Notes: generated by a model not told the origin, from the letters alone. A DNA stretch of 64,000 nucleotides from Candidatus Bathyarchaeota archaeon (GCA_963807605.1 CAWECG010000003.1:576001-640000); one strand, 5' to 3'. Positions 1,459 through 62,658 are shown, counted from the first letter of the stretch. Made by a program: numbers and translations.

Positions 1459-1670
1459 TCTTGATGGAATTCAGCGCGCGCACTTTCGTTTCTCTATCCT
1501 CTGACTGATTACCCATATAAATGACCTGCGCGTCGGGCGCCCAAGAGTCAAATCCTTGACGTTCACATTCCGCAGGTATCTACGCGTACACACTACCCAA
1601 AATGTTTTTAGAGATTGCTAATGCTACCCTTGGCCAAACAATGCGAATCCGAAAGGGTCTGGTGACATAT

Positions 1671-2165
1671 TTGGTGAAATCAAGCAAAGAAGACTTGATG
1701 AAACGTGCTTATGATTTGGGTTTCAACTATACCAAGGATTATGGAAGTTGCTCACAATGTGCCTTTGCAGCTGTGAGCGAAGTCTTGGGAGGTCGAAGCC
1801 GTGAGATCTTTAAGACGATGGACGGTCTAGCTGGAGGATTGGTCCGTGCAGGAGATGGCACATGTGGCGCCTTGTCAGGCGGAGTGGCAGCGATAAGCCA
1901 AAGGTATGGCAGGGCAGATTTCTCGAATCTTGGAGAAAGAGAGAAGGGCATGGTACTGGGCAAGAAGCTCCATGACCGGTTCATAGAAGAGTTTGGAAGC
2001 GCCATCTGCAAAGATGTCCAGACGAAAATTATTGGAAGGTCTTTCAACCTCTGGGACCCCAAGGAACATGAAGAATTCAACAAGGCAAAGGGAGACAAGT
2101 GCCAAAATGTTGTGGGGAAAACTGCAAAGTGGACTGTCGAAATCCTATTGAATGAAAAAAAATAG
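1671..2165 (+). CDS. C_GCAxxG_C_C family putative redox protein
   Basis: YGSCSQC, GLAGG, TCGALSGG, ICKDVQ, KCQNVV; start placed at TTG 1671 rather than 1602. Confidence 0.85.
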   Translation: MVKSSKEDLMKRAYDLGFNYTKDYGSCSQCAFAAVSEVLGGRSREIFKTMDGLAGGLVRAGDGTCGALSGGVAAISQRYGRADFSNLGEREKGMVLGKKLHDRFIEEFGSAICKDVQTKIIGRSFNLWDPKEHEEFNKAKGDKCQNVVGKTAKWTVEILLNEKK

Positions 2166-2339
2166 TATAGAGGTTTGGTTGTTTAACTCAGCAAGCGCAA
2201 GTAGCACGGCTGAGGGCGCACAACTCGAAAGGGCTTAAGCAATTAGCGCCTAAACACCTAAGCCAATAGCACCGACAGGAAAACGTACCCAATCGAAAAC
2301 TACACAGGAAACTAATTTTCGACACCCTAAGAGTTATTT

Positions 2340-2430
2340 TGGTGGACCGGGCGGGATCCGCAACTTTTTCGGTGCTAGAATTGGTTTCAAAATTCGCGCG
2401 GGTTCAGGCCTCGCAGGGTTCGGACACGTC
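2340..2430 (-). mobile_element. att-like end of an integrated element, terminating in a tRNA 3' fragment
   Basis: Minus strand ATCCCGCCCGGTCCACCA matches 16/18 to the tRNA-Val 3' end in the same orientation; upstream sequence is homologous to 37571-37625 and 37879-37963. Confidence 0.65.
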
Positions 2431-2533
2431 GACCTTTGGGATCCGGAAATCTTCTCTATGAAACGGTTCTTGATTGGGTCGTTAAGTGAACGCGCGCGTA
2501 TACTTTTTCATCCTGAGTTCATTCTAAATCCGA

Positions 2534-2692
2534 TTAATGAAGTTGGGAAAGTGCTCCTTTCATCCACAATTTGTAGCGGTCAACACAGTCCTTATCATGA
2601 AAAGCATATTCTTCTCCGTTAATGGTCTCAAAGTAAGGCTCACCGATAATGATATCATCACAAAGGGCACATATCTTTTCCTTCACCATCAT
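2534..2692 (-). CDS. Small TRASH/YHS-type metal-binding protein
   Basis: CALCDD...INGEEYAFHDKDC; GAGGTG upstream of ATG 2692. Confidence 0.7.
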   Translation of the reverse strand: MMVKEKICALCDDIIIGEPYFETINGEEYAFHDKDCVDRYKLWMKGALSQLH

Positions 2693-3048
2693 CTCACCTC
2701 CTATCAATTGTTCCATCATCACATACGCCATGATAGAGTAATATACTTAACGTTTGTTTGTAATACCTTATTCTAAGCATAATGGCGAACAACATAACTT
2801 TGTCCTACAGTTTGTGCTTTGAACAATTAGAATTTTCCTCACTTCAGTGAAAGTCGATGCGGCACAAGCGTATATGAACTTCAATCGTCCTATGCTCATC
2901 CAAGGAAATATATTACGTCCGGATCGTATCTTGCGCCTGAAGTGGACCTCTCTTCGATGAAGCGCGCGCCGGTGTAGGCCTATTGAATTCATATTCAAAT
3001 AGGCAAAACTTTTAACCTCAAAATTGTAGAGATTGTTTCGGTGAGGAC

Positions 3049-3465
3049 ATGCCCAAGTTTAAGGCTACAGCCAAATGGGTCGGAAATGTTCGTTCAATAG
3101 TGGACAATTCCAGAACACACAGTGTGGTTTGTGATCTAACAACCCCTCAGGGTGGAGACGATACGGGGCCAACAGCCAACGAATTGGCTATAATGGCTTT
3201 AGCAGATTGCGCCGTGACAATATTCGCCGATGTCTGTAAACAGAGCAAAATTGAACTCGTTAAAGTGGAGGCTGTCGCGGAGGCTGAAAAACCTCCTGAC
3301 TCGCCCAAGCTGAGTGGGGTAACCATTAAGACTACAGTTACCGCAAAGGCAAGAAAGGAACTATTAGAAGCTTCTTGGAGGAGAACCGAAGCAAACTGCC
3401 CAGTACTATCCATATTCAGGGAGCCAATACCACTAAAGGTCGAATTCGAAGTCATTCCTGAATAA
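3049..3465 (+). CDS. OsmC/YhfA-like protein
   Basis: GGDDTGPTANEL..ALADC and NCPV cysteine pair. Confidence 0.88.
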   Translation: MPKFKATAKWVGNVRSIVDNSRTHSVVCDLTTPQGGDDTGPTANELAIMALADCAVTIFADVCKQSKIELVKVEAVAEAEKPPDSPKLSGVTIKTTVTAKARKELLEASWRRTEANCPVLSIFREPIPLKVEFEVIPE

Positions 3466-3711
3466 TTCTACGAGACGACACGTACCTAGGACTCAACCCT
3501 AGAACAACATCTGAATCATTTATGAAAAATGGTGTTGACAACAAAAGGTGAAACACAAGGGCGTCATACCTTTGACGCCATATCTCCGTAACATTTGCGC
3601 CCGCGTATGATGTGCTTTCCTTCCTTGCTGCAGGTACTATGACCTTCAGTTCGGTTGCTGCGATAAGTAATTCGCTCTTACTTGATTCAAACGAAGCCTT
3701 GAATTAGAAGT

Positions 3712-4017
3712 TTGCAGGCGAGATTTGTGAGCGAGAATAACAAAGAGAATAAGGATACTTTTGAGAAGATTGCAAGAGAGTCGAAAAAAGCTAAAGAGTC
3801 TCGCCTCATCGTCTCTGTGACTGGAATTAGCTGCGCCACCTGCACTGTCGCTATAGAGAAACAGGTGAAAAAGATCGAGGGCGTTGGCGCTGTTAAGACG
3901 GCGATAATGCTGAACAAGGTTTTCATAGATTATGACCCGACTCTCATCGACTCAGCTACAATCAGAAAAGCAATAGACAAGACTGGTTACAAAAGCTACA
4001 TGAGCGTGGAGGAATAA
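3712..4017 (+). CDS. Heavy-metal-associated (HMA/CopZ-like) metal chaperone
   Basis: GISCATC motif, IDYDP...IRKAIDKTGY; start uncertain. Confidence 0.88.
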   Translation: MQARFVSENNKENKDTFEKIARESKKAKESRLIVSVTGISCATCTVAIEKQVKKIEGVGAVKTAIMLNKVFIDYDPTLIDSATIRKAIDKTGYKSYMSVEE

Positions 4018-4033
4018 TGAGCGCCCGTAACGC

Positions 4034-4615
4034 GTGCGCATGCGAGACATTGAAAAATTGACCGCCTCGAAATACCCTTATAATGAAAAGGAGAGGAGGA
4101 GATGGCAGAATCCTGAAGCCATACTAGGAGAAATAGGCTTACGATCCGGTCTAACATTCATTGACATAGGTTGCGGCGATGGCTTTTTCACCATCCCAGC
4201 CGCTAAGATCGTGGGCGAAACAGGGAGAGTCTATGGGTTAGACTCGGATGATGAAGCAATAGATCTTTTGAAGAAAAAGGCCACTGGAGAACGCCTGACA
4301 AATCTAGATTTGAAACTGGGAAAAGCTGAAGAGACAGTCCTATGTGAGGCATGCGCGGACGTGGTCTTCTTCGGTACAGTTCTTCACGACTTTAGAGATC
4401 CAGCCAAGGTATTAATGAATGCGAAGAAAATGGTCAAATCTGACGGACGGCTGATAGACTTAGACTGGAAAAAGGAGTCGATGAAGTTGGGACCTCCACT
4501 TCGAATAAGGTTCAGCCAAGAAGAAGCAATACGACTTATTGAATCGACAGGCCTAAAGATAGAGGAAGTGAAGGAAAACGGCCCCTACCACTACTTGATT
4601 GTGGCCAAATCATAA
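4034..4615 (+). CDS. Class I SAM-dependent methyltransferase
   Basis: DIGCGDG, VLHD, IDLDWKK..GPP. Confidence 0.88.
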   Translation: MRMRDIEKLTASKYPYNEKERRRWQNPEAILGEIGLRSGLTFIDIGCGDGFFTIPAAKIVGETGRVYGLDSDDEAIDLLKKKATGERLTNLDLKLGKAEETVLCEACADVVFFGTVLHDFRDPAKVLMNAKKMVKSDGRLIDLDWKKESMKLGPPLRIRFSQEEAIRLIESTGLKIEEVKENGPYHYLIVAKS

Positions 4616-4765
4616 CTTGTGCTGGGAGGACTCATGGTCTCCAATCAAATTGGATTCGTTTACGTGCGCTTCGGCGTAGTTGGTTAGTCATTTCATATGG
4701 TTAATCAACTGGGGATAGAGTCGAGGAAGGATGCGCGCCACAGCCCTGAGATGTAGTGAAACAGA

Positions 4766-5317
4766 ATGCTACCCAATTTTTTTACGAGTGGAAAGGTTGG
4801 CATTCTAAAAAGCCGACCACGTATCCTCGGACTTGTTATGGTAATCCTGGTTCTTGCTGGTGGAGTGTTTTATTTCTTTTCGATTCAAGAGCGCCCGCGG
4901 GTTAGTCCACCCAAGTCTGTTTCTCTGACAAAAGAGCAGAAAGAGATTGATGATTTTCTGAAGGAGTATTATCTTGCCTATGGTAATGCATCTCTTACCA
5001 GGCTCATTGTGCTCTTTGACAATGATGCTATCTTGTCTGCTCCTAACGGTGTAGTATACAAAGGATTCTACACTATAAGATCCTATTATGTAGAGGATAT
5101 TGATAGTTTCTGGAACTTTACGATCGATAAGACGGCTTCGACAGTTGAGGTTCGAGGGAACGAAGCGTATGCAACATATAATATTAGAGTTGGGCCTTGG
5201 TACATGGGTGTGACTGAGAGTGTAAAATTCTTCTACAAAGATACTTTTGAATTGAAGAGAGAAGGGGATACTTGGAAGATCACCGCATTGACGATAGAAC
5301 AAACCTCAGCCAGATAA
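4766..5317 (+). CDS. Membrane-anchored SnoaL/NTF2-like (DUF4440-type) protein
   Basis: N-terminal hydrophobic helix; LFDNDAILSAPNG...LKREGDTWKI pattern. Confidence 0.6.
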   Translation: MLPNFFTSGKVGILKSRPRILGLVMVILVLAGGVFYFFSIQERPRVSPPKSVSLTKEQKEIDDFLKEYYLAYGNASLTRLIVLFDNDAILSAPNGVVYKGFYTIRSYYVEDIDSFWNFTIDKTASTVEVRGNEAYATYNIRVGPWYMGVTESVKFFYKDTFELKREGDTWKITALTIEQTSAR

Positions 5318-5458
5318 TCGAGTTTCGTTGTCGCCTCACGAATAGAATCACACATACAAATTCGTCACATTAGGAAAAGAGATCTCAGGTCTGAGATAAG
5401 GTCCAGATATACGTGCACGAAACGTTAAGTAAGCATCTGGAGTACGTTGCTAGAGGTG

Positions 5459-5641
5459 ATGAGCTCAGTGATTACTTTGAAATGTCCTATTGGCGGGTGT
5501 GTCTTTGAGATAGATGCTCACACCTTTGAGGAAGCAATTAAGAAGGCTAGAGATCATGCGAAGGCACAGCACAACATGACTGATCTCCCTGCCCACATTA
5601 TAGAGAAAATTGCACAAGCGTTTAAGCCAACAATATGGTGA
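5459..5641 (+). CDS. DUF1059-like small metal-binding protein
   Basis: CPIGGCVFEI...ARDHAKAQH. Confidence 0.75.
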   Translation: MSSVITLKCPIGGCVFEIDAHTFEEAIKKARDHAKAQHNMTDLPAHIIEKIAQAFKPTIW

Positions 5642-5718
5642 AGTTGTAGCGACCGCCAGTCTTTTCTTGGCCGACTTGTCCATCATATTGTCAGCCCGGT
5701 TCCATCAAGCTTTTCATT

Positions 5719-8157: not shown

Positions 8158-8315
8158 GCATTCTATGGTAGCACGCGCTAGAAGATAGGATACACAGAAG
8201 AAGAACTCAAGTTCCTGAAGGAGCGAATCTAGGTTTCGGTTGTGGTAATCCCGTCGATCTCGCTTTTCTAAGAGAGGGTCAGACTGTTAGCGCGCGCTGC
8301 GCGTATCCTCTGAAA

Positions 8316-8675
8316 TCAGTGTGATACGCCTACGTGTGTTACCTGTATTGACTGAAGAGGTGTCTTCCCACGGATCCATCTAGCTTTGAAGATTGAGACT
8401 TCAGGTAACTGATCTGATATAACCGTCGCATTCGCTTCTCCATTAATCAGTTTGAGTTGCACATTTTTTGATGAGCCCTTGAAGCGCATGCGTCATTCAT
8501 TGTTTATTGAGAGTTCCACGGTGTCATCTCTGGTCGTATCGATCTTTCCGTCGTCGGTCACAGCGGCGACTCGAAGTGTCTTCTCAGTCGACTTCTCTAT
8601 TCCTGGCAAAAATATTACCAAGCGCGTAGCTTCGGGTTGCTTTTTCTCTGTGGGTTCGTGCTTCGCTTTATCCAT
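8316..8675 (-). pseudogene. Hypothetical beta-rich protein interrupted by an in-frame TGA at 8493-8495
   Basis: Frame stays open for 58 codons past the TGA (RMRFKGSSKNVQLKLINGEANATV...) to TGA 8316. Confidence 0.55.
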
Positions 8676-8966
8676 TTTGTGGATCCCCTTAAGATGACTT
8701 ACAGTTGCATGTAGTTACAATACAACTATTCTGCATTTGAATTTAGTGAGCGCTGGAACCTCAGCCGCTTTCTCAGGTCTATCCTATCACCCGCGTGCTA
8801 GTCAAAAATTAGCGTAATCTAGAATATAACTATGAGCGTGCGTTATATGGCATCATTGTCCCACCACTTACATCGTATCAGGCCCTCTTCGTATTAGGGT
8901 TCTTAGCATTATCCACTTTGGTTCTAATTCTTTTCCAGGTTTCACGTCTATAGAAGATTCGGATGT

Positions 8967-9086
8967 GTGTGTGCCTTAGCTGGTGAGCACACACACTAAC
9001 ATAATCTAACGGTTCAAATCTGGAGGCTCTCCAGCTATGGCGACGACGACGAACGGTTCACTACGCTCACCAAGGGACAGGACACG
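8967..9086. repeat. Cluster of three 28-bp 11-6-11 sites
   Basis: 8967+ GTGTGTGCCTT-AGCTGG-TGAGCACACAC; 9047- GTCGTCGCCAT-AGCTGG-AGAGCCTCCAG; 9086- CGTGTCCTGTC-CCTTGG-TGAGCGTAGTG. Confidence 0.6.
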
Positions 9087-9094
9087 GGATTTTG

Positions 9095-9400
9095 CTATTG
9101 AGAGTTGTTGCCTTCCCGGTCTTCATCTTCCAGAACTTCTATAACCTTTTCGACAATCTTCGGTCTTGCGTGTATTCTGAATTCGAAGTGGGCTGGCGGA
9201 AAATTATGTTGAGTGATGGTTCCATTCACCGAATAGTCTTGCTCTTTCTCTGGAAATCTTACGTAGACAGGTGAGAATTTCCGTAATACAAGATCGTTTC
9301 CCAATATATCTGCCCAAGCTAACCGACACAGTCTCCTCCCCCCCAACAGAGGCAGATGCCGTGAAAACTCAATAAGCTTTTGCTCAGTCGTGCAGAGCAA
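9095..9400 (-). CDS. Hypothetical protein (start uncertain)
   Basis: Open frame co-oriented with the MFS gene; no recognised motif. Confidence 0.3.
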   Translation of the reverse strand: MLCTTEQKLIEFSRHLPLLGGRRLCRLAWADILGNDLVLRKFSPVYVRFPEKEQDYSVNGTITQHNFPPAHFEFRIHARPKIVEKVIEVLEDEDREGNNSQ

Positions 9401-10580: not shown

Positions 10581-10601
10581 TAAAGAATTGCTTGGTTACG
10601 T

Positions 10602-10629
10602 GTGTGTGGCCTAGCTGGTGAGGGGGATA
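10602..10629 (+). repeat. 28-bp site, direct repeat of the 8967 site
   Basis: GTGTGTGGCCT-AGCTGG-TGAG; same 6-bp core as 8967. Confidence 0.6.
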
Positions 10630-11075: not shown

Positions 11076-11098
11076 CTCGTGTATACTATGGTTTTGCT

Positions 11099-14397: not shown

Positions 14398-14495
14398 TGG
14401 TGGGCCGGGAGGGATTTGAACCCTCGACCACCTGCGTGTCAGGCAGGTATCCTAAGTATCCTGCATCTAATACATCCAGACTAGACGACCGGCCC
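14398..14495 (-). tRNA. tRNA-Val(GAC) with 20-nt D-loop intron (14456-14475, position 19/20), CCA encoded
   Basis: Cloverleaf GGGCCGG/CCGGCCC, CCTGC-CT-GAC-AC-GCAGG, TTCAAAT; BHB with helix GTCT/GGAT and bulges GG|A, AC|T. Confidence 0.92.
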
Positions 14496-19618: not shown

Positions 19619-20025
19619 CTAGTACACCTGAAAGTTATCATAAAGGCAAACTCGCCACTTATTAATGCTACTTGTGATATTCACGTGCATGCGCACAGCC
19701 GGGTTAACAAAATAAGGCTCCACTCTCTATGGTCGAAGATAATGTCCGGAGAAGATTCAACAAGTTGACGGTAACGTTCCTCGATCTCTCTTAATGCTCT
19801 AGTTCTCTCCTCAACTAGCTCCTCTAAACTCTCGGCCTTTGACACTCAATGGTCCCTCGTGTCATCCTATCTTCCGTCTCAATTAATATGGTTAAGGATG
19901 ATGGGTGACAAGAAGTTGTTTCATCAAGGATTTCTGTTTTCGTTACGCACATGCACTTTGATTCTCGAGGTTTGGACCTTGTTAATTTCACTAGGGTCTC
20001 TCTTATGCGCGTGCAGCCTCTGTCC

Positions 20026-34579: not shown

Positions 34580-34697
34580 GGGCCCGTAAACCAAGATGTA
34601 GGTTGGTCGGGACGCTCAGTCAGGTAGAGCGGTGGTCCAGACTTGGCCGAAGCTCTTAACCCAAAGGTCGCGGGTTCAAATCCCGTCGGGCCCGCCA
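34580..34697 (+). tRNA. tRNA-Lys(CTT) with two introns: 34589-34613 (position 9/10) and 34636-34651 (position 30/31)
   Basis: Spliced: GGGCCCG TA GCTC AGTCAGGTA GAGC G GTGGG CT CTT AA CCCAA AGGTC GCGGG TTCAAAT CCCGT CGGGCCC G CCA; both introns have BHB/BHL junctions. Confidence 0.9.
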
Positions 34698-34936
34698 AAT
34701 TTCTTCATATTCGAATGTATTATTGGCTTAATTTTTCCAATTTTTCATTTTGACTCCAAAGAACTCATAATGTCAGTATTCAACCTGCGACAAAGGTCAA
34801 GTGCACGCGTACGTAATATCAATGGCAGAAATCGACTGATCATAAGCGCGCGAATGAGCGTCTTCTCCGTTTCTTCCCTCAAAGATGTTAAGATGGCTAC
34901 TGCATATAGCAACTTACGAAGACTATCGATGCAGTT

Positions 34937-35372
34937 ATGAAATCTCGGCAAAGGAGAAGGCAGTTGTAACTATACAGAATGTCGTCGCTACGGCAAATTT
35001 AAAGCAACACTTAGACCTCGACACTATTATAGGATTATTTCCAGGAGTTCAGTATCGGCCACGAGAGTTTGCAGGACTCATTTTCCGGTTGAAGAACTCT
35101 AAGACTTCGACTCTCATCTTCAGTTCTGGGAAGATGGTTTGCACTGGCTCCATCGACTTGGATAAGACTACGTATTCACTGAAGAAGACGATGTATGACC
35201 TGAGCAATTTTCAGGCTTGATTTACCGGATGGATGAACCGAAAGTGGTTATGCTCCTCTTCGCAAGCGGAAACTTCGTCTGCACCGGGGCGAAGAAGGAA
35301 GAAGAAGTTCACTATGCCGTAATTAAACTCCCAGTGACACTTGAGAAGAAAGAACTTATTGAATACAAGTAG
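34937..35372 (+). pseudogene. tbp: TATA-binding protein relic (internal deletion and frameshifts)
   Basis: IQNVVATA...LIFSSGKMVCTGS joined to IDL..., then shifted frame [26 protein letters not shown]. Confidence 0.88.
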
Positions 35373-35707: not shown

Positions 35708-36082
35708 TGCATCCTCCACCAATGAAGCTTTAGTGGAAGGTGTATGTAGTCTATATTTAAACGCTTCAGAATTTTACTACGTGCGCGGTTAGCCGATCAA
35801 TCTTTCAATTTCAGATGTAAGTTCCTCGCATCGCATTGGATTCAACACCTCATTTGCTCAACGAAGGGGAGCAGAATGACAGACCATCTTATACAGAGCT
35901 ATCTGTGCGCAGTTCCAAGCATGGCAATAGTATTCGATTGTGCATCCAAATTCGGCCTTTGTGGCTTTCGTATTGCCCTTATTCAGATTTTCATTGGCTT
36001 GATTGATGTACTTTGAATCTCCACCTGCGCGCTAGTAATATGTTAATGAGTCAGAATGTGCCTCATTGGTTTATGTGATCGC

Positions 36083-36403
36083 ATGAGTGACGACTGGTCT
36101 AAGGCTAAAGAGAGGCAGATAGAGAGGATAAAGAGCTTACAGCCTCATGATCGGTTAAGTTTAGTTGAGGCAATAACCGAAATAAACTGGTATATTACCA
36201 GCAGTTGCCTTGGCTGGGCGGAGTGGATTCATGACCCGATTATTGCCGGCCATTTTAGCCAAGAGAAACTGGAAGAATTATTCAAGAGGTTTACCAAGTT
36301 TGGGCTTGAGTTTCTGGAATTTGACATTTCTGCAACTAAAGAGTTTGGGGAGATTCTGAAGAAGTCTGAGAAAGCTAGACGGAAAACCCCAATCTATGCT
36401 TGA
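36083..36403 (+). CDS. DUF2153-like protein
   Basis: DRL.L....SCLGW..W...P...LEFDI..T. Confidence 0.7.
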   Translation: MSDDWSKAKERQIERIKSLQPHDRLSLVEAITEINWYITSSCLGWAEWIHDPIIAGHFSQEKLEELFKRFTKFGLEFLEFDISATKEFGEILKKSEKARRKTPIYA

Positions 36404-36605
36404 CAGAATCGAATTCAGGTGTATTGTTTGTCTGTTGAAGGATACCGTCGATTCTGCCTATTACATTCGATCTGATTGTGGTAAAGCAGCTGAGGTTCCA
36501 TTTGAACCCTCTGGAGATAGACCAGTCTACTGTAGAGAATGCTGCCAAAAACGCGGAAGATAATAGAGCGGGCGCTTAGAACATCCGAATTTGAACCGTT
36601 AGGTT

Positions 36606-36855
36606 GTGTGCGTATCCCTTGGTTAGTACACACGGCGACGACGCTAACCAGATATGGCACACACAGCCGTTCCTGCCAATGGCGCTGAGCGCGCGCCTAT
36701 TATTATGCACCCTTCTCATTTCAGAAATTCTTGACTACGTACTCTGATGCGCGATATTCCTCTGTAAACTACGTCGGATGTATTCCTGCCAACATAACAC
36801 CGGTGAACGAAGCGAGCCGCCCCTTCTGTGTGTGCCATGACTGGTAAGCACCACC
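36606..36855. repeat. Three 28-bp 11-6-11 sites; two form 24-bp inverted repeats around 36643-36849
   Basis: 36606+ GTGTGCGTATC-CCTTGG-TTAGTACACAC; 36664- GTGTGTGCCAT-ATCTGG-TTAGCGTCGTC; 36828+ GTGTGTGCCAT-GACTGG-TAAGCACCACC. Confidence 0.65.
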
Positions 36856-36868
36856 TAGCCCGGAAATT

Positions 36869-37123
36869 CTAACGCCAAGGCGGCTTCGGTTTCGTTGAAC
36901 TTGATATTAGTACTTCGCCGCGCGACGATACAGTTGCCGTGAATTCTTCTCTTACGCCTGCTTCGGTAAGGTAAGTTCCTTTGACCTTCCAGGCGCCCTT
37001 TTCATCGGGGCCCTTGGTCTCCTGCTCCGTAGACAAAGAAGCGATCTTCCCGTGGCGGGTCCTTGTGCCGAGGAAGTACTTCCTCACGACACTTTCTGCA
37101 TCCTCCGCTTTCTCTATTCGCAT
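36869..37123 (-). CDS. Small hypothetical protein (PepSY-like pattern)
   Basis: AEDA...W.V.G...F.A.V...GEV. Confidence 0.55.
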   Translation of the reverse strand: MRIEKAEDAESVVRKYFLGTRTRHGKIASLSTEQETKGPDEKGAWKVKGTYLTEAGVREEFTATVSSRGEVLISSSTKPKPPWR

Positions 37124-37564
37124 CTTTGTCCAAGCTTCCAGCTCAGTTGAGGAAGAAAGAAATATTAGAACCCTTTGGTTGAACCTTCCAACTGCTCCTT
37201 AGGTAAAAACGATTCTGCAATCGAAAACATTCCTCAAGAAAGTCTCCTTGGAACGCACTTGACTATTGTGTTACATCGATCTTCGATGTACCCCTTCGCC
37301 ATCGATCTGTTCCTTGATTCTAAAGAATGCTCGACATAATAGAACGAACGATTGCATTCAAGCTTCCCAAGGTCGCGCGCGCTAACAGGAAAAGTTCTTT
37401 TCCTCTGAACTAGATTCATTACGTGGTGTATGGATTTGACCAGACCTGAATGGCAGAAGAAACGGAAAAGAATGGCAAACAGGATGGGCCAAAAGAAGGG
37501 CAGAACGAGATAAATTTCTCCAGACTCAACGTCACACCCACTAGAAACTCTCGCTAGATATGAG

Positions 37565-37625
37565 CCTGCCCGATTTTTGAGCCCAATTCCAGCACCAAGA
37601 ACGCTCCGAACCCGTCGGCCCGCCA
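37565..37625 (+). mobile_element. attR-like end: degenerate direct repeat of the tRNA-Lys 3' end
   Basis: CCCGTCGG-CCCGCCA vs tRNA CCCGTCGGGCCCGCCA; preceded by TTTTGAGCCCAATTCCAGCACC, homologous to the 2340-2430 end. Confidence 0.7.
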
Positions 37626-37795
37626 GAATTTTTCTCTGGGTCTTTTTCCCTGCTGCGTGTTAGTACGCGATAGACTAACCTACTGGCGTGGGCTTTGCTT
37701 TTCCCCTCACTTGTTTATGACTAAGGTCATGCGAATATAGACCAACGCGCATAACGTTAAGCAGCAAGAATACCTTTCTAGAGGTGATAAGCTTA

Positions 37796-37867
37796 GTGAT
37801 TACCTTGAGATGTTCTATTGGCGAATGTGTCTTTGAGATAGATGCTCACGCCTTTGAAGAATCAATT
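37796..37867 (+). pseudogene. 5' fragment paralog of the DUF1059-like gene at 5459
   Basis: VITLRCSIGECVFEIDAHAFEESI vs VITLKCPIGGCVFEIDAHTFEEAI, upstream DNA also shared; homology ends at TGCGCGC. Confidence 0.85.
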
Positions 37868-37878
37868 GCGCGCTATAC

Positions 37879-37963
37879 GTTCGGACCTTCCGAGGCCCAA
37901 ACCACCAACAATTTTGAGTCCAAAACTAACGGGAAAAATGGCCGGTTCTAGGCGGATCCACCA
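37879..37963 (+). mobile_element. Third, more degenerate att-like end
   Basis: TCGGACCTTCCGAGGCCCAAACC..AATTTTGAGTCCAA..GGCGGATCCACCA aligns with the 2340-2430 minus strand. Confidence 0.55.
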
Positions 37964-38065
37964 AATCTATTATGTGAGTTCTGCACTAGCTTAATTCTTG
38001 GTTCAAGGAAACTGGAGAAACTGTCGATTTATCAGTATCTCTCTTCAGCAAGGAAGTTCGCTTTT

Positions 38066-40178: not shown

Positions 40179-40390
40179 TGTATTTCACTCTTTGTCATGT
40201 TTCAATGGCAAAGCCGCCATTTTAGTATGACAGGTCATCATCGAAGAAGGGCGCGCGGGAGTCTTCTTCATGTTTATACTCAAAAAGACGGCTCTGGGAA
40301 TTCAGTTGCCTCTGTCTGACAAGACAGCGGATCTTTCGCGTACGCACATGAAATCGTTGACTAGACCTGCTTGCATCAAGCGGTTCCAGA

Positions 40391-40516
40391 GTGTTGAAAG
40401 TGATTGCTGAATATGAGAAAAATCCAATCATCACTCCGAGGGAGGGGCGAGAATGGGAAGCCGGAGGAATGTTTAATCCTAGCGCGGCGGTTCACGGAGG
40501 AGGAGCGCGCACGTAA
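40391..40516 (+). pseudogene. N-terminal fragment of a GH130-like glycosidase
   Basis: YEKNPIITPREGREWEAGGMFNPSAA, then GCGCGCACG and TAA. Confidence 0.6.
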
Positions 40517-42215: not shown

Positions 42216-42472
42216 GATCTTGCCCGTCTTGATAAGAATTAATAAGATTGGCTGGGAACTCATCTACTTGTCTCATCATAAGGATGAGACTTGGCCTATC
42301 CAAAGTACGCATAACGGGTCGAACCTTCTGAGGCTCGAACTCACACAAATTTTTAGCCCTTTTTCAATGCCAAAAATGCTGCCAGAACGCGTAAGGTGAA
42401 GCGTGCGCGTGTTAGTTGAGCGCCTGTAAGGAAGGCGGTCCAAGATTGTCGTGATGGGTATGCTAAAAAGCC

Positions 42473-46541: not shown

Positions 46542-46922
46542 CGAAGATAGTCATAGGCTTGTCTAAATAAAATTATGATGGAGCTGCCAGTATGAACCCT
46601 ATGGTATGAGTCCAAGGGGGTGTCGAACGGATCCGTGTGGAATCCGTCCGCGTGCGTGTGTTTTGTACTGACATTAGGTGTGTTGTCTTACTGGTTTGTC
46701 GCAGATTTCCAGAGAGACGATGCCCTTTAGTCGTTTCCTGGGCCTCAGGACATGGAGAATCCTAGTAGGAAGATTCAGTGTCTTTCGCGTTTATCCTAGT
46801 GCAATCAAAGCAATAACCTCGGACTTTTCAGGAATCCTTAATGTCTCATAGATATCTTCTTCATTGAGGTTTCCTGCCCAACATGGTGTCCAAAACGTGC
46901 CATTTTACGCACGCGTAATTGG

Positions 46923-52438: not shown

Positions 52439-52455
52439 TGCTGCCAGATGCCTAT

Positions 52456-52812: not shown

Positions 52813-52868
52813 GCAACTTGTATTTTTTGTACAGACCATACTCATAAACTATGATCGAAACAAGAAAT

Positions 52869-53102
52869 GCGCGCGTGGTGTTGTAAATATCGGCATGGAC
52901 GCGAGCATCATAGATTGCGGAAATACCGCCTCGAAGTTCTTTTCCACACGAGGTTTGCGCTGACTATGGAATTATGAATACTGAGAACTTGTGCAACCTA
53001 AACAAGGTAGCGGGAAAACGGTTCACCTACGTTGGTTTACCTCTAAAGATCCGCGGAGGGACCGGCTCACCCATACGCGCCGTAGCACTCCTAGAAACAT
53101 AA
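52869..53102 (+). pseudogene. C-terminal fragment of a cyclase/kynurenine formamidase family gene
   Basis: GVVNIGMD...HEVC..YGIMNTENLCNL...GLPLKIRGGTGSPIRAVA*; frameshifted; begins at GCGCGCG. Confidence 0.85.
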
Positions 53103-53774
53103 TTGTTTAGAGCAAAGCTAATGCGAAATGGAAGACCACGTATTAGTGACCTTCCAAACTTCTTTTTCCAGAAGTCTCTGACTCACGATAGCAGGGTCAT
53201 TCCTATTGGTGGCAACAACTGAGGAAACCAAAGCTTCATGTACCAAATGAGTAGGCATAGTAGCATTTCAGATAAAGGAAATCCCTTGCTTCATGTCCAA
53301 GGATGGATGAATGAGCGATGCTATGTGACAACTGCGTACACACTAGGGCTTACTGCCCGAGAGGGATAACAGCACCTAAAGAAGTCGACCAATGCCATTA
53401 CTACATAGCACAAATCATTGAGGTCAATGAATCACTAGAATCGTCACAACAATACTCTGCGCCACAAACAGATGACCCACTCACCCGCTAACGTCGCAGG
53501 GGCCGGTAACGGATTTAGTAACAGTCTGAAGCGTGACTTAACATGAAAGACTGCGACGCGCGCGCAAAGACACTGACAGAAATCAGAAGAATGACCTACA
53601 CTTTCATTCTGTGAAGGTTTGAGTACATCATTCTAGCCGCTGAGCCAACTGATGACGAGATTATTTTAGAGGCAACTCGCTGCTAATCGATGAGTTCATC
53701 AGCTAGGTGTGAAGGGCCTGATAGCGGGAAGACTTTAAAATACCACCAGCGAACGGAACTTTGCCTGCGACGAG

Positions 53775-55492: not shown

Positions 55493-55557
55493 TTCCTGAC
55501 GAGTAACATGCTTTGCAGAGGCGTTCACACTTTGGAAACAGTGAGGCGAGGAGAATA

Positions 55558-56379: not shown

Positions 56380-56427
56380 TCGGTGAATGGCGGTCTACCG
56401 AAAGCTTCTGGAAGAGAATTTGTGCAT

Positions 56428-57804
56428 CTAGTGATGGGTTTCAGTTAAGAGTTCGTGATGTTTAACTAATGCGTAAAGTGCTGCTACAGCTCTTTCCGGA
56501 GATGAGAAAACGGGGATCCCCATTGAGTGCATCCTTGCTTTCTCGGAATCTTCAACTTCAGCGCCACCAACGTAGCAGACGACCACTGGTTTATCGGTCT
56601 TTCCCACGACGTTTTTCACTGCATCCGCGGCACGAGGAAGGGGATCTGCAAAGATCGGGATGAATGCGTTGATATTATTATCACCAAGATTCTCTTGCAT
56701 CACCAACTGGAACATCTCGGACGTAGTAGTGGTCAAATCGAGCGGGTTACCAATAATACAGCGACTTGGAAGGAGTCTGTGCAATCGTTCCTCTGTACTT
56801 TTGGATATCCGCGGAAGCTCTAGTCTCAGCTTGTCAAGCAGATCTGCGGCGAGAATACCGGCGCCGCCTGAGGATGTTATAACGAGTACTCCTCGACCTT
56901 TGGGCGTCGGCAAGAATGAAAGGGCTTTCGTGAAGTCGTAGAGCTCTTCGAGGCTGCTCGCACTCATGATGCCCGACTGCTTCAATGCCGCTTCGAAGAT
57001 TTCACTGCTCCCCGACAACGATTTTGTATGCGAAGCCGCCGCCCTGATACCTAATTCAGTCCTGCCCCCCTTCAGAATCACAATAGGCTTCTTCTCGGCG
57101 ACTTTTGATGCGACTTCAATGAATTTTCTTCCATCTTCTATGCCTTCAACATACATTGCTATTGCTTTGGTGTGAGGGTCGTCTGCCAGATATGGAAGCA
57201 GATCTATCTCGTTCACATCAATTCGGTTTCCAAGAGAGATGCACTTGCTTACACCGATATCTTCTTTCTCGGCCCAACACTCAAGGGCTGTGCCAACCAG
57301 ACCGCTCTGAGTTATTATTCCAATGGGCCCCCTCTTCCTAACCCGAACCCACATGGACATTCCAGCATAGGGATTGTCTACACCAATGCAGTTCGGGCCT
57401 ACCACACGGATTCCTGTCTCGCGAATAATATTGATTAGAGCCTTCTCCAGTTCTTCACCCTCTTTTCCTATTTCGCGAAAACCGCCAGAAATGATAACTG
57501 CAGACTTTACCCTCTTCCGACCGCATTGTCTCAATATTTCTGGGACGAAGGTCGATGGCACAACGACCACTGTCAGATCCACAGCGTCGGAAATGTGCTC
57601 AAGAGAGGCGTATGTCTGAAGGGAGAGAATCTCTTCTACATTAGGATTAACTGGAAATATCTTGCCTCTGAATCCTGATTCAATAATATTTTTGAGAATT
57701 AGGTACCCTGTTTTTTCCGGATCTCTAGATGCACCAACGATGGCAATAGATTTCGGTTCAAAAATGGCTCTTATCGCTTCGTCATTCATGCGACTGCTCT
57801 CCAT
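56428..57804 (-). CDS. ADP-forming acyl-CoA synthetase alpha subunit
   Basis: GPNCIG, QSG, ASHT, SGGAG, NPLD. Confidence 0.9.
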   Translation of the reverse strand: MESSRMNDEAIRAIFEPKSIAIVGASRDPEKTGYLILKNIIESGFRGKIFPVNPNVEEILSLQTYASLEHISDAVDLTVVVVPSTFVPEILRQCGRKRVKSAVIISGGFREIGKEGEELEKALINIIRETGIRVVGPNCIGVDNPYAGMSMWVRVRKRGPIGIITQSGLVGTALECWAEKEDIGVSKCISLGNRIDVNEIDLLPYLADDPHTKAIAMYVEGIEDGRKFIEVASKVAEKKPIVILKGGRTELGIRAAASHTKSLSGSSEIFEAALKQSGIMSASSLEELYDFTKALSFLPTPKGRGVLVITSSGGAGILAADLLDKLRLELPRISKSTEERLHRLLPSRCIIGNPLDLTTTTSEMFQLVMQENLGDNNINAFIPIFADPLPRAADAVKNVVGKTDKPVVVCYVGGAEVEDSEKARMHSMGIPVFSSPERAVAALYALVKHHELLTETHH

Positions 57805-57813
57805 CGATTGAGT

Positions 57814-58815
57814 CTACATACTTCTAGCTCGAGCAACCAAGTATTGGGCAAATTCTCTTACTCCCTTTCCTACGGAGTATTGAGGTCCGTATCCAAGTTC
57901 TTGCTGAGCCTTTGTCAAATTGCCCGGTCCTCTGATTGGCGTCTGCTTGGAGATCATGGGCCAGTAACCGGGTCCGACGTGAATCTGGGCATCTGGAATG
58001 GCCTCTTTCGCTGCCGCGGCAACCTCCCTGACAGTGACTAATCGTCCACCGTCAATGTTGAATACATCGTGTTTGGAGTTCCTAGTCTTGATTGACAGAA
58101 ATACGGCTTGAGAAAGATCCTTGACATAGGTGTAATTGATTGGATGGTCTCCACCCTGCTCCAAGATGAACGGTTGCTTCTTGACCACCCTATCGAGGAT
58201 GATGGAGACGGGGTTTTGAACAGTTATCTGTCCTGGCCCGTACACCCATGACGGCCTGAGAATTAAAGTGGACAAGCCGTAGAGTTGATTGAAGGACTTA
58301 ACGATTGTTTCCGCCATCATCTTGTGGGAAGCGTATATTCCACAGATCGATTGTGGGACTTCTTCCTCCTTTATCGGTGAAAGATCTTCGCAGTGGAGAT
58401 TGCCGTATACACTCTGTGAACTAACATAGATCAGACGTAAATCTCTCAGCCTTGAAGCTTCAGCTACATTCAAGGTTCCCTTGACATTGACCTCAAATGA
58501 ACCGGCTGGATCATTTCTACATGCGACCTCTGAGGGAATGGCGGCGGTATGAACTATCTCCGTAATGGAGTATTGATCGATTGTCCTTAGCAGATCGTCA
58601 AGTTTCCTTACATCGCCCTTTACAACAGGTGTTTGCCAGCCCTCGATGAAGTCTATTGGACGAGGACTAAGATCGGAACAGACAACATTAGCACCCTCAT
58701 CGGAAAGCTTCTTGGCGGTGTATGCTCCAACAAGACCTGTTCCTCCTGTTATCAGAATAGAAGATTTGGGTTCTGCAGCAATAGATCTTACCCGTTGGCT
58801 TGATTTTATCGACAA
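57814..58815 (-). CDS. NAD-dependent epimerase/dehydratase (extended SDR)
   Basis: TGGTGLVG, YASHK, VYGPG. Confidence 0.88.
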   Translation of the reverse strand: MSIKSSQRVRSIAAEPKSSILITGGTGLVGAYTAKKLSDEGANVVCSDLSPRPIDFIEGWQTPVVKGDVRKLDDLLRTIDQYSITEIVHTAAIPSEVACRNDPAGSFEVNVKGTLNVAEASRLRDLRLIYVSSQSVYGNLHCEDLSPIKEEEVPQSICGIYASHKMMAETIVKSFNQLYGLSTLILRPSWVYGPGQITVQNPVSIILDRVVKKQPFILEQGGDHPINYTYVKDLSQAVFLSIKTRNSKHDVFNIDGGRLVTVREVAAAAKEAIPDAQIHVGPGYWPMISKQTPIRGPGNLTKAQQELGYGPQYSVGKGVREFAQYLVARARSM

Positions 58816-58982
58816 TCTCCTCTATGTTCACATAATAGGTTAGCGCTCCAACGCAAACTGGGCCTTCTAGGTTTATGGCCCGACATGGTGGGCAGTTGCT
58901 ACAACCAGTCCCGACTGTCAGCCCGAATCTTCTTTTCCGTCCTGCTAATTCGAACGAGTTAAATAACAATGATTAGGGTTTA

Positions 58983-60176
58983 TTGCCCGGGAGTCAGGGA
59001 CGCGGTTTGGTTTCGAAAGTCTATTTCACTGATATGAGATCGAAGAAAGCTGACCAGGCGGTTACTAAGAAGATAAAGAACCTCTTTGATGCGTCTGCAA
59101 TCAAGGATGTCATATCGCAAGGCGACTTGGTCGCATTGAAGGTTCATTTCGGCACGGGTGAAAACCAAAGACATCTGAGGCCTGAGCACATTAGAGCCGT
59201 AGTCGAGAAGGTTCAGGAAGCCGGTGGTAAGCCCTTCGTTACAGAGACTACTGGGATGGGGTTAGCGGCAATCAGGGGAACGGCTTTAGGATGTATTAGG
59301 ACGGCTACTATGCACGGCTTCACCCAAGAAACCTTGGGCGCTCCGATAATCGTAGCAGACGGTCTGAAGGGGCTTTCAGGCGTCAAGGTAAAGATTAATG
59401 GAGTCAAGATGAAGCAGTTTGAGATAGCCCAGGCGATAGCCGAATCGGACGCGATGATATCGATCGCTCATGTGAAAGGCCATCCAAGAACAGGGCTTGG
59501 AGCAACCCTCAAGAACATTGGGATTGGATGCCTCACAAAAGTCGGTAAAGCGCCTCTGCACTTGGCAAAGAAACCATCGATAGACCAGAAAAAGTGCAAC
59601 AACTGTGGTTTGTGTCTTTCATTCTGTCCGAGTGGAGCCATTCGACGAACAAAGGGGAAACTGCAGATCATACAAGAGAAGTGCATTTTGGGATGCGGGT
59701 GTTGGGATATCTGTCCTGAGAAAGCAATCATGAGATGGAGTCAACTGCATCACCCGAGGAACAGGGAACTTGTTATCCGTAACGTCGATGCGGCTGCTGC
59801 CGTGATCAGACTTCTCGGGAGAGATAAGCTGGCATATTTCAACTTGGCATATGATATAACTCCACACTGCGACTGTGCTGACTACGGTGACGTCCCGATG
59901 GTACCTGATATAGGCGTGTTCGCATCGAAGGATCCTGTTGCTATTGACAGAGCGAGCTCTGACGCTATCATCAATGCTCCAGGGATCAAAGGATCCGCTG
60001 CAGAGGAGATAGGTGCTATGAACCCCGGAGAAGATAAGTTCGCTAAACTATCTGACTGGCAACCCTTTGAAATCTTCAAGAATACCGATCAAACAAGAGA
60101 GTGGAGAACTCAGCTAGAGATCGGGGAAAGGCTAGGTCTCGGAACGCAAAAATACAAACTGATACCAATAGAGTAA
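58983..60176 (+). CDS. DUF362 protein with inserted 2[4Fe-4S] ferredoxin domain
   Basis: KVHFG, HVKGH, CNNCGLCLSFCP, C..CGC..ICP, CDC, DPVAID. Confidence 0.9.
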   Translation: MPGSQGRGLVSKVYFTDMRSKKADQAVTKKIKNLFDASAIKDVISQGDLVALKVHFGTGENQRHLRPEHIRAVVEKVQEAGGKPFVTETTGMGLAAIRGTALGCIRTATMHGFTQETLGAPIIVADGLKGLSGVKVKINGVKMKQFEIAQAIAESDAMISIAHVKGHPRTGLGATLKNIGIGCLTKVGKAPLHLAKKPSIDQKKCNNCGLCLSFCPSGAIRRTKGKLQIIQEKCILGCGCWDICPEKAIMRWSQLHHPRNRELVIRNVDAAAAVIRLLGRDKLAYFNLAYDITPHCDCADYGDVPMVPDIGVFASKDPVAIDRASSDAIINAPGIKGSAAEEIGAMNPGEDKFAKLSDWQPFEIFKNTDQTREWRTQLEIGERLGLGTQKYKLIPIE

Positions 60177-60278
60177 GAGATTGCACACAAGTTCCATTGA
60201 TCCCTTCTCTCTCGCGTGCGCGTACTGTTTTCTCTCAAAAAATCTAAACATGCGTTAGAATCGGGATTGTCGGTTCAC

Positions 60279-60926
60279 ATGTCCAAGATTAGTGAGACGA
60301 TAAAGGAAGCTTTGTTATCTTTTGATCAAGATAGACTGGTTGAAGTGACAAGGAAAGGTCTGGATGAAGGTCATAGCCCGCAGGAAATCATCAACGCACT
60401 CACAACTGCCCTGAAAGAGGTTGGTGAGAAATTCGAAAAAGGCGAATTTTTCCTTGCGGAATTGGTTACTGCTGGTGAAGCTGCCAGAACGGTCATTTCG
60501 GAATACTTGAAACCTCTTCTTAAGAAATCAGGGATGACCGGTGAGGCTATTGGAAAGATCGCTATAGGAACCGTCGCCGGAGACATACACGATATAGGCA
60601 AGGGCATAGTTGCTTCGATGCTTTTCATAGCCGGGTTTGAAGTGATAGATCTGGGGGTTGATGTACCCATCGAGAAGTTTCTCCAGGTTGTAAGGGAGAA
60701 CACGCCAGACATCTTAGCTATGTCTGCTCTGCTGAGCACCACTATTCCAGTACAGAGAGAAGTGATTGAAGCTCTCGAACAGAACAAGTTGCGGGAGAAA
60801 CTGAAGGTGATAGTCGGTGGTTCCGCTGTAACAAAGGAGTGGGCTGAAGAGATAAATTCAGATGGTTATGCTGAAGATGCAAGCGGAGCGGTGAAGCTCG
60901 TCAAGAGGTTACTTAGAGATCAGTGA
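60279..60926 (+). CDS. Corrinoid protein (MttC/MtgC-like)
   Basis: GDIHDIGKG, DLGVDV, SALL, YAEDA. Confidence 0.93.
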   Translation: MSKISETIKEALLSFDQDRLVEVTRKGLDEGHSPQEIINALTTALKEVGEKFEKGEFFLAELVTAGEAARTVISEYLKPLLKKSGMTGEAIGKIAIGTVAGDIHDIGKGIVASMLFIAGFEVIDLGVDVPIEKFLQVVRENTPDILAMSALLSTTIPVQREVIEALEQNKLREKLKVIVGGSAVTKEWAEEINSDGYAEDASGAVKLVKRLLRDQ

Positions 60927-60935
60927 GGGGAGCTT

Positions 60936-62390
60936 ATGATCGACCATCCAAAGATAGGAATCTTCGAAGTATTCTCAAAAGAGGATGTTTACAGGATTCA
61001 CACCGCTACCTTGGAAGTCTTAGAGAGGGTCGGCGTCAGGGTCGAAGAAGAAAATGCTTTGAAACTATTGGAGGAAATAGGATCGGATGTTGACTTTGCG
61101 AAGCAGATTGTGAAGATACCTCAACACATTGTAGAAGAAGCAATCAGACTCTCGTCGAGAACCATATTGTTTGCAGGTAGAGACAAGAAGAAGGACATAA
61201 GATTAGAGGGAAGGAGAGTCAATTTTGGTCTGGGAGAGGGAGCTACTAACTTCCTCGACTCTGAGACTGGTTCGATCAGACCTGCTACAAAGATGGATGC
61301 GGCGAACGCATCAAAACTTGCGGATGCTCTGCCCAACATAGATTTTGTGATGTCACTTTTCACAGCTCAAGATGTTCCCAAATCAGTCTTACCATTGCAT
61401 GATCTTGATGCGGCGTTAAGGAACACAGAGAAGCCGGTGATGGTTGTGGACTTCGGTCTAGATGCCACCTATCTGATACAGATGGCGGCGGCAGTCGTTG
61501 GGGGGGAGGAAAGACTCAAGGAAAGGCCAATACTGGGCATGTATAGTGAGCCTGTCTCGCCCTTAACACACGGAAAGGACCATGTGAGAAACCTCATGAC
61601 TTTTGCAAAGGCCGAGCTGCCCATCGTGTATATTCCATCGCCTGCGTGTTGCTCGACAGCACCCGCAACTGTTGCGGGATCAGTAGTTCAAGCCAATGCT
61701 GAGACTCTGAGCGGAAACGTCATTGCACAGTTCACGAAGAAGGGTGCCAAGTTCGTGTATGGATCGGACACGTCAGTCATGGATCAGAGAACTGGCGTCT
61801 GGTCCTACGGATCACCAGAATGGATGATCACTAACCTTGCTATGGCTCAGCTTGGACGTTATTACAGGCTCCCGATCTGGAGCTCAGGAGGTTGTTCAGA
61901 TTCTAAGATCTTGGATGGGCAAGCCACTTTAGAAGCAGGCTTCAGCCTCTTCTTCGCAGCTGCAAGTGGGGCAAACATGGTACATGACGTTGGGTCCTAT
62001 TTGAACTTCGGTCTTACCGGAAGTCTGGATCTTGTCACAATTTGCGATGAGATCATCTCTATGATCACTTACCTCCTCAGAGGAATTGAGGTTAACGAGG
62101 AGACTCTTGCTGTCGACATCATTAGCAAGGTGGGACCAGGCGGCCATTTTATCACGCAAAAGCACACGTTAGATTTCTTCAAGAAAGAGCATTGGATGCC
62201 TAATCTCTTGGACAGACAGATGAGAAACAATTGGGTTAAGAGCGGTTCAAAAGACCTGGTGCAAAGGGCAAGGGAGAAAACCAGAGATATTCTGTCCAAA
62301 CATCAACCTACTCCCCTTTCAACTGATGTCGAAAGGAATCTTGACGCCGCACTAAAAAAGGCGGAAAAGGAGATCCTAGCACACGGCTGA
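60936..62390 (+). CDS. MttB-superfamily methyltransferase without pyrrolysine
   Basis: PVSPL, APATVAG, DQRTG...GSPE, SDSK..DGQ, VGPGGHF; no in-frame TAG. Confidence 0.92.
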   Translation: MIDHPKIGIFEVFSKEDVYRIHTATLEVLERVGVRVEEENALKLLEEIGSDVDFAKQIVKIPQHIVEEAIRLSSRTILFAGRDKKKDIRLEGRRVNFGLGEGATNFLDSETGSIRPATKMDAANASKLADALPNIDFVMSLFTAQDVPKSVLPLHDLDAALRNTEKPVMVVDFGLDATYLIQMAAAVVGGEERLKERPILGMYSEPVSPLTHGKDHVRNLMTFAKAELPIVYIPSPACCSTAPATVAGSVVQANAETLSGNVIAQFTKKGAKFVYGSDTSVMDQRTGVWSYGSPEWMITNLAMAQLGRYYRLPIWSSGGCSDSKILDGQATLEAGFSLFFAAASGANMVHDVGSYLNFGLTGSLDLVTICDEIISMITYLLRGIEVNEETLAVDIISKVGPGGHFITQKHTLDFFKKEHWMPNLLDRQMRNNWVKSGSKDLVQRAREKTRDILSKHQPTPLSTDVERNLDAALKKAEKEILAHG

Positions 62391-62658
62391 TCAAACCATT
62401 CTGACTCTAGCGCGCGCTCTTGACTATGCCTCCGGAGGACTAGGCCTCGAGGCAGCTAGCAAAAGAGTCACATTTTTTGACACGGATATTCTTCAGAAGA
62501 GTCTACCTAGCTGAACGTCTGCGCCTTTTCATTCTACGGATCGATCTACCCGCGATCCAAGAATCTTTCGATTTTCCGACCCAAGTACTCATTACAGGGA
62601 ACCGCCTTGTTATCGGTCTAAGGTTACAGAAGCTTTTCTCAGCCAGTATCCTTATCCT

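Follow-up and report, generated by a model that had tools for sequence, protein, structure and literature searches.

Telomerase, formed by TERT and the telomerase RNA, is the classical enzyme in which a short RNA segment specifies a DNA repeat, and its de novo repeat addition also occurs at internal breaks. Also familiar are short palindromes that a genome carries by the hundred, such as HIP1 of cyanobacteria. Repetitive extragenic palindromic (REP) elements are longer, imperfect palindromes having a transposase of their own, RAYT (PMC2817692). DRT10 is a three-gene defence system in which a protein-primed reverse transcriptase produces tandem-repeat DNA dictated by a non-coding RNA (ncRNA) (bioRxiv 10.1101/2025.10.16.682844). 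Among archaeal primases, PriSL of Saccharolobus islandicus combines microhomology strand annealing, terminal transfer and primer extension in double-strand break repair, this being a replicative primase that uses no RNA template and leaves small insertions or deletions (PMC12019639). PolpTN2, the replication protein of Thermococcus plasmid pTN2, contains a PriS-like domain with reverse-transcriptase and terminal-transferase activities, has no dedicated RNA, and displays the reverse-transcriptase activity only after truncation (PMC3973330). Here we analyse a stretch of 64,000 nucleotides (nt) of a Candidatus Bathyarchaeota archaeon (the window, G000:C3:576001-640000, within a five-contig genome of 2.65 Mb and 47% G+C), whose intergenic DNA carries short palindromic GC tracts that also occur throughout the genome, together with a small PriS-like primase and a structured RNA, encoded outside the window, as their candidate writer. 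The reading that we favour, with a probability of about 0.55, is that self-complementary tails templated by this RNA are added to DNA ends that are then joined, the tracts being the scars. Should its link to the enzyme fail, the palindrome would still be a robust, junction-specific genomic signature.

When the 8-mers of the genome's entire intergenic DNA were scanned without bias, (GC)4 ranked first and (CA)4 second. (GC)4 occurs 298 times, about 14 copies being expected from dinucleotide frequencies, and 250 of the copies are found between genes, at a density of 0.49 per kb versus 0.022 per kb within genes, a 22-fold difference. The logo built from the 298 copies reads just W-A-(GC)4-T-W, with nothing conserved past position 2 on either side, and the core signal is a discrete palindrome of 10-12 bp, (T)A(GC)4T(A). 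Because the logo shows nothing outside these positions, the tracts are not miniature inverted-repeat transposable elements (MITEs) or REP elements with their RAYT, which need at least 20 conserved nt around the palindrome. The early end of conservation also makes a classical recombinase site unlikely, a recombinase or transposase target having been one of three origins proposed in a sequence-only reading of the window. Intergenic GC runs have, in one phase, a peak at 8 nt (135 G-started runs of this length, versus 52 + 43 of 7 nt and 31 + 31 of 9 nt), whereas coding runs fall off smoothly. This peak is non-geometric, where a slippage microsatellite is expected to decay monotonically with length, and the tracts are therefore not a slippage product. 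Copies occur in spacers of all three types (convergent, tandem and divergent) and keep no constant distance to starts or stops; a role as promoter, terminator or operator was discarded for want of any positional preference relative to genes. A haloarchaeal origin, with the purine-pyrimidine (RY) box as explanation, was discarded as well, since the proteome is not acidic.

The sequence-only reading had described these elements in the window as tracts of alternating purines and pyrimidines. All 17 tracts that it quoted are present as described and all fall outside the gene calls, which are based on open reading frames (ORFs) and leave 12.6 kb of the window as intergenic. When coding and intergenic DNA of the window were compared with 100 dinucleotide-preserving shuffles, the RY tracts proved to be in excess in intergenic DNA, with 60 observed versus 32.7 expected for tracts of at least 8 nt (z 4.9), 26 versus 6.9 for at least 10 nt (z 8.8) and 14 versus 1.4 for at least 12 nt (z 11.3), none of the shuffles matching the observed count at any of these lengths. 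Coding DNA of the window showed no excess of RY tracts over the shuffles (z -0.7 to -0.1). The class is nonetheless heterogeneous: besides (GC)n scars and the products of their mutation, it takes in chance occurrences and (CA)n runs that come from an unrelated repeat. The (CA)n runs were set apart from the phenomenon because of their fixed flanks, by which they belong to a longer, multi-copy repeat of at least 20 nt; such (CA)n/(TG)n runs are seen at window positions 8963-8996, 10597-10608 and 36605-36665, and genome-wide.

Mixed RY tracts are largely mutated (GC)n scars, judging by comparison of paralogs. The mixed 13-nt tract at 5407-5419, upstream of an intact DUF1059 gene, corresponds to a perfect (CG)4 at the aligned position of its paralogs at C3:844158 and C1:572998, from which the window copy differs by C-to-T and G-to-A changes. 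A second pair of paralogs, at C3:834804, shows the same decay of the tract by transitions. Variants of the 10-mer with one substitution are far above chance for transitions and transversions alike, the former outnumbering the latter 2.4-fold per word. Transitions leave the purine-pyrimidine alternation visible and transversions hide it. Strict alternation is a property of the GC and TGCA types of tract and not of an AGCT type found in relatives. Since (AGCT)n, which does not alternate, occurs together with an AGCU segment in the RNA described below, alternation is incidental, and the property common to all types is self-complementarity. The proposal that the tracts are break hot spots prone to form Z-DNA fails in general on the same non-alternating (AGCT)n of relatives with another RNA segment.

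The relation of the tracts to rearrangements was explored through a self-comparison of the genome, whose 2,559 matches supplied the ends of homology blocks. GC-tract density peaks sharply within about 8 nt of these ends. A tract adjoins 12.3% of the intergenic block ends, versus 2.6% of random intergenic positions, and 2.1% of the coding ones, versus a background of 0.26%. Across the genome, the tract is present in one copy only at 180 of the 273 tract-bearing block ends and in both copies at the remaining 93. In collinear paralogs, as at C3:74808 and C1:353532, the tract in some cases stands in place of a few bases. The single-copy ends, together with intact paralogs that lack the tract, indicate that the tracts are mostly added sequence, although existing ones may also be re-used, as the 93 ends with a tract in both copies would allow. 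Flank identities on the two sides of the tracts are independent (odds ratio 1.35, p 0.41), a result that does not separate the models considered below.

Relics within the window illustrate these joints. The DUF1059 relic, 110 bp on the plus strand (37758-37867), lies between a mutated tract at 37745-37753 and a GC tract at 37867-37873, and loses homology to the intact copy (5430-5539) exactly at the latter, the intact copy having no GC tract at the position of this right-hand break. The TBP-like relic gene (34885-35220) is truncated on its 5' side at the GC tract 34846-34852; its paralogs at C1:136665, C1:423045 and C2:46805 share sequence further upstream and contain no GC tract there. Similarly, the frameshifted cyclase relic (about 52870-53102) starts at the tract 52867-52877, its 5' truncation point, at which the intact paralog C3:93239-94237, with 75% identity across 49 C-terminal residues, is ordinary coding sequence. 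These three tracts thus read as added scars and not as pre-existing targets, judged from the intact homologs. The earlier claim that the tracts are scars or targets of rearrangement therefore stands as regards rearrangement joints, which are mostly added scars, and falls for the most part as regards targets. A fourth relic, a GH130-like fragment said to end at the GC-core tract 40505-40515, is less clear. The open frame 40361-40516 does end at the tract, but its identity was assigned by eye only, and neither the Pfam search nor the search for a paralog in the genome returned a match; the cyclase fragment had no Pfam match either, both fragments being too short. The tract at 40505 is a plausible junction. 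The 820-bp segment 1492-2311, with a (GC)4-type tract (1474-1483) 9 nt before its left end, is duplicated at C1:572036-572855, where the copy has other partners at both of its ends via tracts, one of which is absent from the window copy; at the end matching 1492, a degenerate tract links it to the DUF1059 module.

Four PriS-like matches were found in the genome, namely the replicative PriS, a LigD-type polymerase beside Ku, a 258-amino-acid gene and a 297-amino-acid gene. The last, at C3:72237-73127, has a patchy distribution among relatives and is the candidate writer. It belongs to a family of proteins of roughly 265 residues (260-300), mostly found on contigs of 1-5 kb; the 20 diverse members compared all share D96, D98, H154 and D205, which make up the DxD motif, (S)GxH and a third acidic residue. 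Its Pfam DNA_primase_S score, 24.2 bits, is just below the cut-off of 26.8 bits; a profile of the family matches archaeal PriS structures with an E-value of 2e-11, and the predicted model (pLDDT 73.6) matches the Pyrococcus and Saccharolobus PriS with a Foldseek probability of 1.00 and a TM score of about 0.5. By profile and predicted fold, the protein is thus assigned to the PriS-type archaeo-eukaryotic primase (AEP) superfamily. The genes beside the primase-RNA unit include neither a conserved partner nor, as far as found, defence-type neighbours.

Other possible writers were considered. The 258-amino-acid gene (C3:316908-317681) was discarded as a core gene that is also present in genomes with 0-1 (GC)4, and the Prim-Pol family PF09250 has no match in the genome. 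Ku-LigD was discarded because Ku is anti-correlated with the motif. No Ku was found in the 15 other genomes sampled from the same family, six of which hold 75-325 (GC)4, or in G044 and G041, motif-rich genomes of other families; genus g9, with 4-18 (GC)4 per genome, commonly has it. The Ku, LigD-type polymerase and ligase cluster of the genome studied here (G000:C1:590162-593347, L003) is probably a horizontal acquisition, given the absence of Ku from those 15 genomes of the same family.

Alignment of the 3' ends of primase family members exposed a structured RNA element, from which a covariance model was built. Its elements are a GAUGAAA box, a single-stranded segment of variable sequence that ends in UAA(A/G)A, and a 9-bp stem enclosing both another GAUGA box and a small hairpin. 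Compensatory changes are observed in 11 of its 14 pairs, and sliding the partners lowers the paired fraction of helix cells in metagenome loci from 95% to 33-59%. In 66 of 80 metagenome loci the model places the RNA at the end of the primase gene and on the same strand. The genome studied here has two copies, one at the end of the gene (C3:72272-72356) and the other at C1:380244-380330, behind a degraded copy of the gene. The reading frame of the 297-amino-acid protein runs through the element, relatives having about 265 residues, and the conserved C-terminal residues AMK in fact reflect the GAUGAAA box of the RNA. No matching Rfam family was found at E-values up to 1. Box C/D or K-turn small RNAs pair a RUGAUGA C box with a CUGA D box; here, two GAUGA-type boxes are conserved and no CUGA D box was seen. 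In four loci (L163, L159, L182 and L183) the variable segment contains a 5-nt unit one and a half times over, of a doubled GCGCU type, recalling telomerase templates; the 19 kb of contigs of these loci held no clear cognate motif.

The dispersed motif tracks the variable segment of this RNA through at least three switches, as judged from sequence comparison across organisms. Most of the 101 genomes of the order contain 0-30 (GC)4, and eight besides the one studied here contain 120-346; of five further genomes with both gene and RNA, four contain 251-453. Flanks were analysed in about 400 kb sampled from each of G102 and G101, and on metagenome contigs with the RNA masked. G102, whose segment is GCGC-UAAG, has 59% of its runs flanked by A and is enriched in the extended words predicted by the segment, and the genome of the window resembles it in this respect (65% A-flanked). 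In G101, with the segment CGC-AUAAA, 66% of the runs are T-flanked, with A before T, and run lengths are broader. On metagenome contigs, A- versus T-flanked runs number 17:2 at GCGC-UAA loci and 0:6 at CGC-AUAAA loci (Fisher p 1.6e-4). At three loci the segment is an AGCU repeat, and their contigs contain nine dispersed (AGCT)2-3 in 19 kb, versus three in the other 273 kb (Poisson p about 2e-12); the sole locus with a UGCA-repeat segment has (TGCA)3 on both sides.

According to the reading favoured here, the PriS-like enzyme would copy the variable segment of the RNA onto free DNA 3' ends, and two ends so tailed would anneal through their self-complementary core and be sealed whatever their neighbouring sequence. 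Unrelated pieces would in this way be pasted together with the palindrome left at the joint, and later point mutations would turn (GC)n into mixed purine-pyrimidine tracts. Ends tailed with A and four or five G/C letters, overlapping by 0-4 nt, would produce the observed peaks at (GC)3 and (GC)4 and the sharp drop beyond. Such joining might benefit the host, by repairing breaks, or the mobile primase-RNA cassette. Both steps are plausible on biochemical grounds, considering the activities of PolpTN2 (PMC3973330) and the microhomology joining by PriSL (PMC12019639). Among the three candidates of the sequence-only reading, end joining that writes short palindromes comes closest to this proposal, with copying of an RNA template favoured over the snap-back synthesis then envisaged. 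In its most extended form the proposal describes a primase-built analogue of telomerase, in which an enzyme of roughly 265 residues and a kink-turn (K-turn)-like RNA template would tail any free DNA end, glue arbitrary ends and so drive truncation, patching and module shuffling, with a lineage-specific palindrome at each joint; we consider the chances of this fuller version to be evenly balanced.

The primase-RNA unit functionally resembles telomerase and DRT10 and, because its protein is a primase-family enzyme, is a member of neither. It shares with telomerase the pairing of a polymerase with a dedicated structured RNA, a short segment of which specifies a DNA repeat, and the change of the repeat along with the segment. 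The likeness is functional only, as the protein is a PriS-like AEP and not a TERT-type reverse transcriptase. The repeats also differ, being self-complementary, interstitial, 6-12 nt long and situated at joints of unrelated DNA instead of chromosome ends, and the activity that would add them is putative. As in DRT10, a prokaryotic enzyme is paired with an ncRNA that dictates repeat DNA; unlike DRT10, the unit consists of a lone primase-family gene without conserved neighbours, and its putative product is in the chromosome. PriSL end joining also involves an archaeal PriS-type enzyme and microhomology, but here an accessory paralog with an RNA of its own would create the microhomology. PolpTN2 provides a biochemical precedent for a stand-alone PriS-like catalytic domain. 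HIP1 and REP elements are comparable as short palindromes in hundreds of copies per genome, but the present motif is 22 times denser between genes, is conserved over 10-12 bp only, and lies at rearrangement joints. The literature consulted contained no description of a primase-RNA system of this kind or of a GC-palindrome junction signature in archaea.

Several observations weigh against RNA-templated tailing. G044, G059, G041, G053 and G011 are rich in (GC)4 and have no intact gene of the family and no such RNA, G011 retaining primase gene fragments only. Loss of the gene from these five bins is possible, the family being mostly on contigs of 1-5 kb, but this is an excuse and not evidence. 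G104 has gene and RNA but only 23 (GC)4, and G018, also with both, shows no enriched word in 400 kb, a single cognate tract adjoining its gene. In the genome of the window, the commonest extended flank fits a G033-type template better than its own two RNAs. Moreover, the DNA tracts frequently exceed the RNA core in length, and reiterated copying or a two-ended overlap must therefore be assumed. Related genomes are non-independent samples and, the motifs being palindromic, sequence alone cannot separate an RNA template from an RNA guide. Finally, the primase-RNA cassette is itself often found between cognate tracts (in L220 at 206 and 1519; in L202 at 863 and 4330; in G018 beside the gene), and may therefore be a selfish mobile unit.

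Developed into a full alternative, this last point would make the unit a small selfish cassette whose RNA segment guides it to a target much as bridge or guide RNAs do, with the tracts as insertion sites, ends or excision footprints. Such a cassette would be flanked by its own motif, as in L220, L202 and G018, and could lack a conserved partner gene, and its presence mostly on very short contigs resembles that of mobile DNA occurring in multiple contexts; the 93 block ends with a tract in both copies would also suit it. We nevertheless hold it to be unlikely, since intact paralogs without a tract at the break speak against a target that was already there, the majority of tracts are solo, between unrelated host fragments with no cassette near, and tract lengths are quantised and exceed the RNA core. 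Enzyme and RNA might also make repeat DNA for some other purpose, for instance antiviral defence, and the tracts be incidental captures at breaks. Co-variation of segment and motif is equally expected under incidental capture, the patchy phyletic distribution is like that of defence genes, and bacterial DRT10 does make tandem-repeat DNA from an ncRNA (bioRxiv 10.1101/2025.10.16.682844). However, scars that number in the hundreds per genome, are of quantised length and have symmetric flanks suggest a regular tailing of ends, and defence-type neighbour genes were not found, which leaves incidental capture improbable.

Other explanations dispense with the primase-RNA unit. The tracts might be fragile or slippage-prone palindromes (forming hairpins, cruciforms or Z-DNA), or additions that a general polymerase or Ku-LigD end joining makes by snap-back or without a template. 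The five motif-rich bins without intact gene and RNA would then be accounted for, the genome of the window does contain Ku and a LigD-type polymerase, and identical palindromes can recombine with each other. This is also improbable in our judgement, given that the run lengths are non-geometric, the tract is absent from intact sequences where the break lies, the motif switches to (AGCT)n or (TGCA)n along with the RNA segment, and Ku was not found in the 15 other sampled genomes of the family, including the six with 75-325 (GC)4. The strong over-representation of an 8-10 bp palindrome confined to intergenic DNA could also reflect a selected word, be it protein-binding, regulatory or related to restriction-modification, as for HIP1 or the RY box in promoters of haloarchaea; its indifference to starts, stops and spacer type, its concentration at homology-block ends and its co-variation with the RNA make such selection very unlikely. 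Self-complementary GC tracts can, in addition, trigger template switching in vitro, and junctions could on that account be assembly or amplification chimeras. We give this hardly any credence, considering that the signature recurs in many independent assemblies, including a single-contig chromosome of 2.17 Mb, that tracts are inherited and mutated between paralogs, and that they co-vary with a genomic RNA gene.

The remaining tracts of the window are distributed as follows. Perfect (GC)4 copies are found at 2962-2969, 87 nt upstream of an OsmC-like gene, at 36689-36696, and at 62410-62417, 20 nt after a stop codon, and a tract with a (CG)4 core (2490-2503) lies in a long spacer, as judged from sequence and gene calls. 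A (GC)4 with an adjoining tract (8290-8306) marks the left end of the homology block 8299-8686, and a short GC tract (36026-36032) that of the block 36038-36363, which corresponds to a DUF2153 gene. An 11-nt CG tract (53556-53566) is placed in the 930-nt spacer after the cyclase relic. Among the mixed tracts, the 15-nt one between two genes at 4030-4044 is probably a mutated GC tract; others are a GC-rich one in a convergent spacer (42401-42412), a 12-nt palindromic one (46906-46917) located 17 nt from the start (46923) of a minus-strand methyltransferase ORF call, and a mixed GC tract (60213-60225) in a 39-nt spacer inside an MttB-like operon. The 16-nt mixed tract at 19682-19697 has a short GC core only and no homology-block end beside it, and its origin is uncertain.

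The perfect copy at 36689-36696 and a 9-nt CG tract at 37374-37382 are both inside a gene-poor patchwork of 1.7 kb (36404-38065). This stretch has no confident genes and is made of short unique pieces parted by GC tracts and (CA)n-type runs, the DUF1059 relic being the sole piece with a source elsewhere in the genome.

Some features of the window recall tRNAs. Two tRNA-like 3' halves, each with T-arm, acceptor strand and CCA, are seen at 14398-14429 and 34666-34697, with an inverted match of 84%. ARAGORN called no tRNA in the window, and the halves are probably intron-bearing tRNA genes that this program missed. Just upstream of the 1474 tract, a direct repeat with a period of 88 nt (1315-1373 and 1403-1461, 73% identical) looks like stacked remnants of tRNA ends or attachment sites. 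No known RNAs or tRNAs were found at the tracts of the window. Genome-wide, another G+C-rich palindromic 8-mer, CGGGCCCG, is 14-fold over-represented in intergenic DNA (42 copies versus 3 expected) and may derive from tRNA acceptor-stem remnants.

If RNA-templated tailing by the primase is correct, it would mean that the RNA-templated addition of repeats to DNA ends was invented twice independently, this time on a primase fold and not on a reverse transcriptase, and it would also be an end-joining route that makes its own microhomology. The enzyme-RNA pair would write a programmable tail on DNA ends, and would thus be a potential tool. For these abundant sediment archaea, it would account for the mosaics of gene fragments in their accessory regions and for the poor assembly of such regions, and, since the tracts mutate with time, it would leave a readable and datable mark on each joint.

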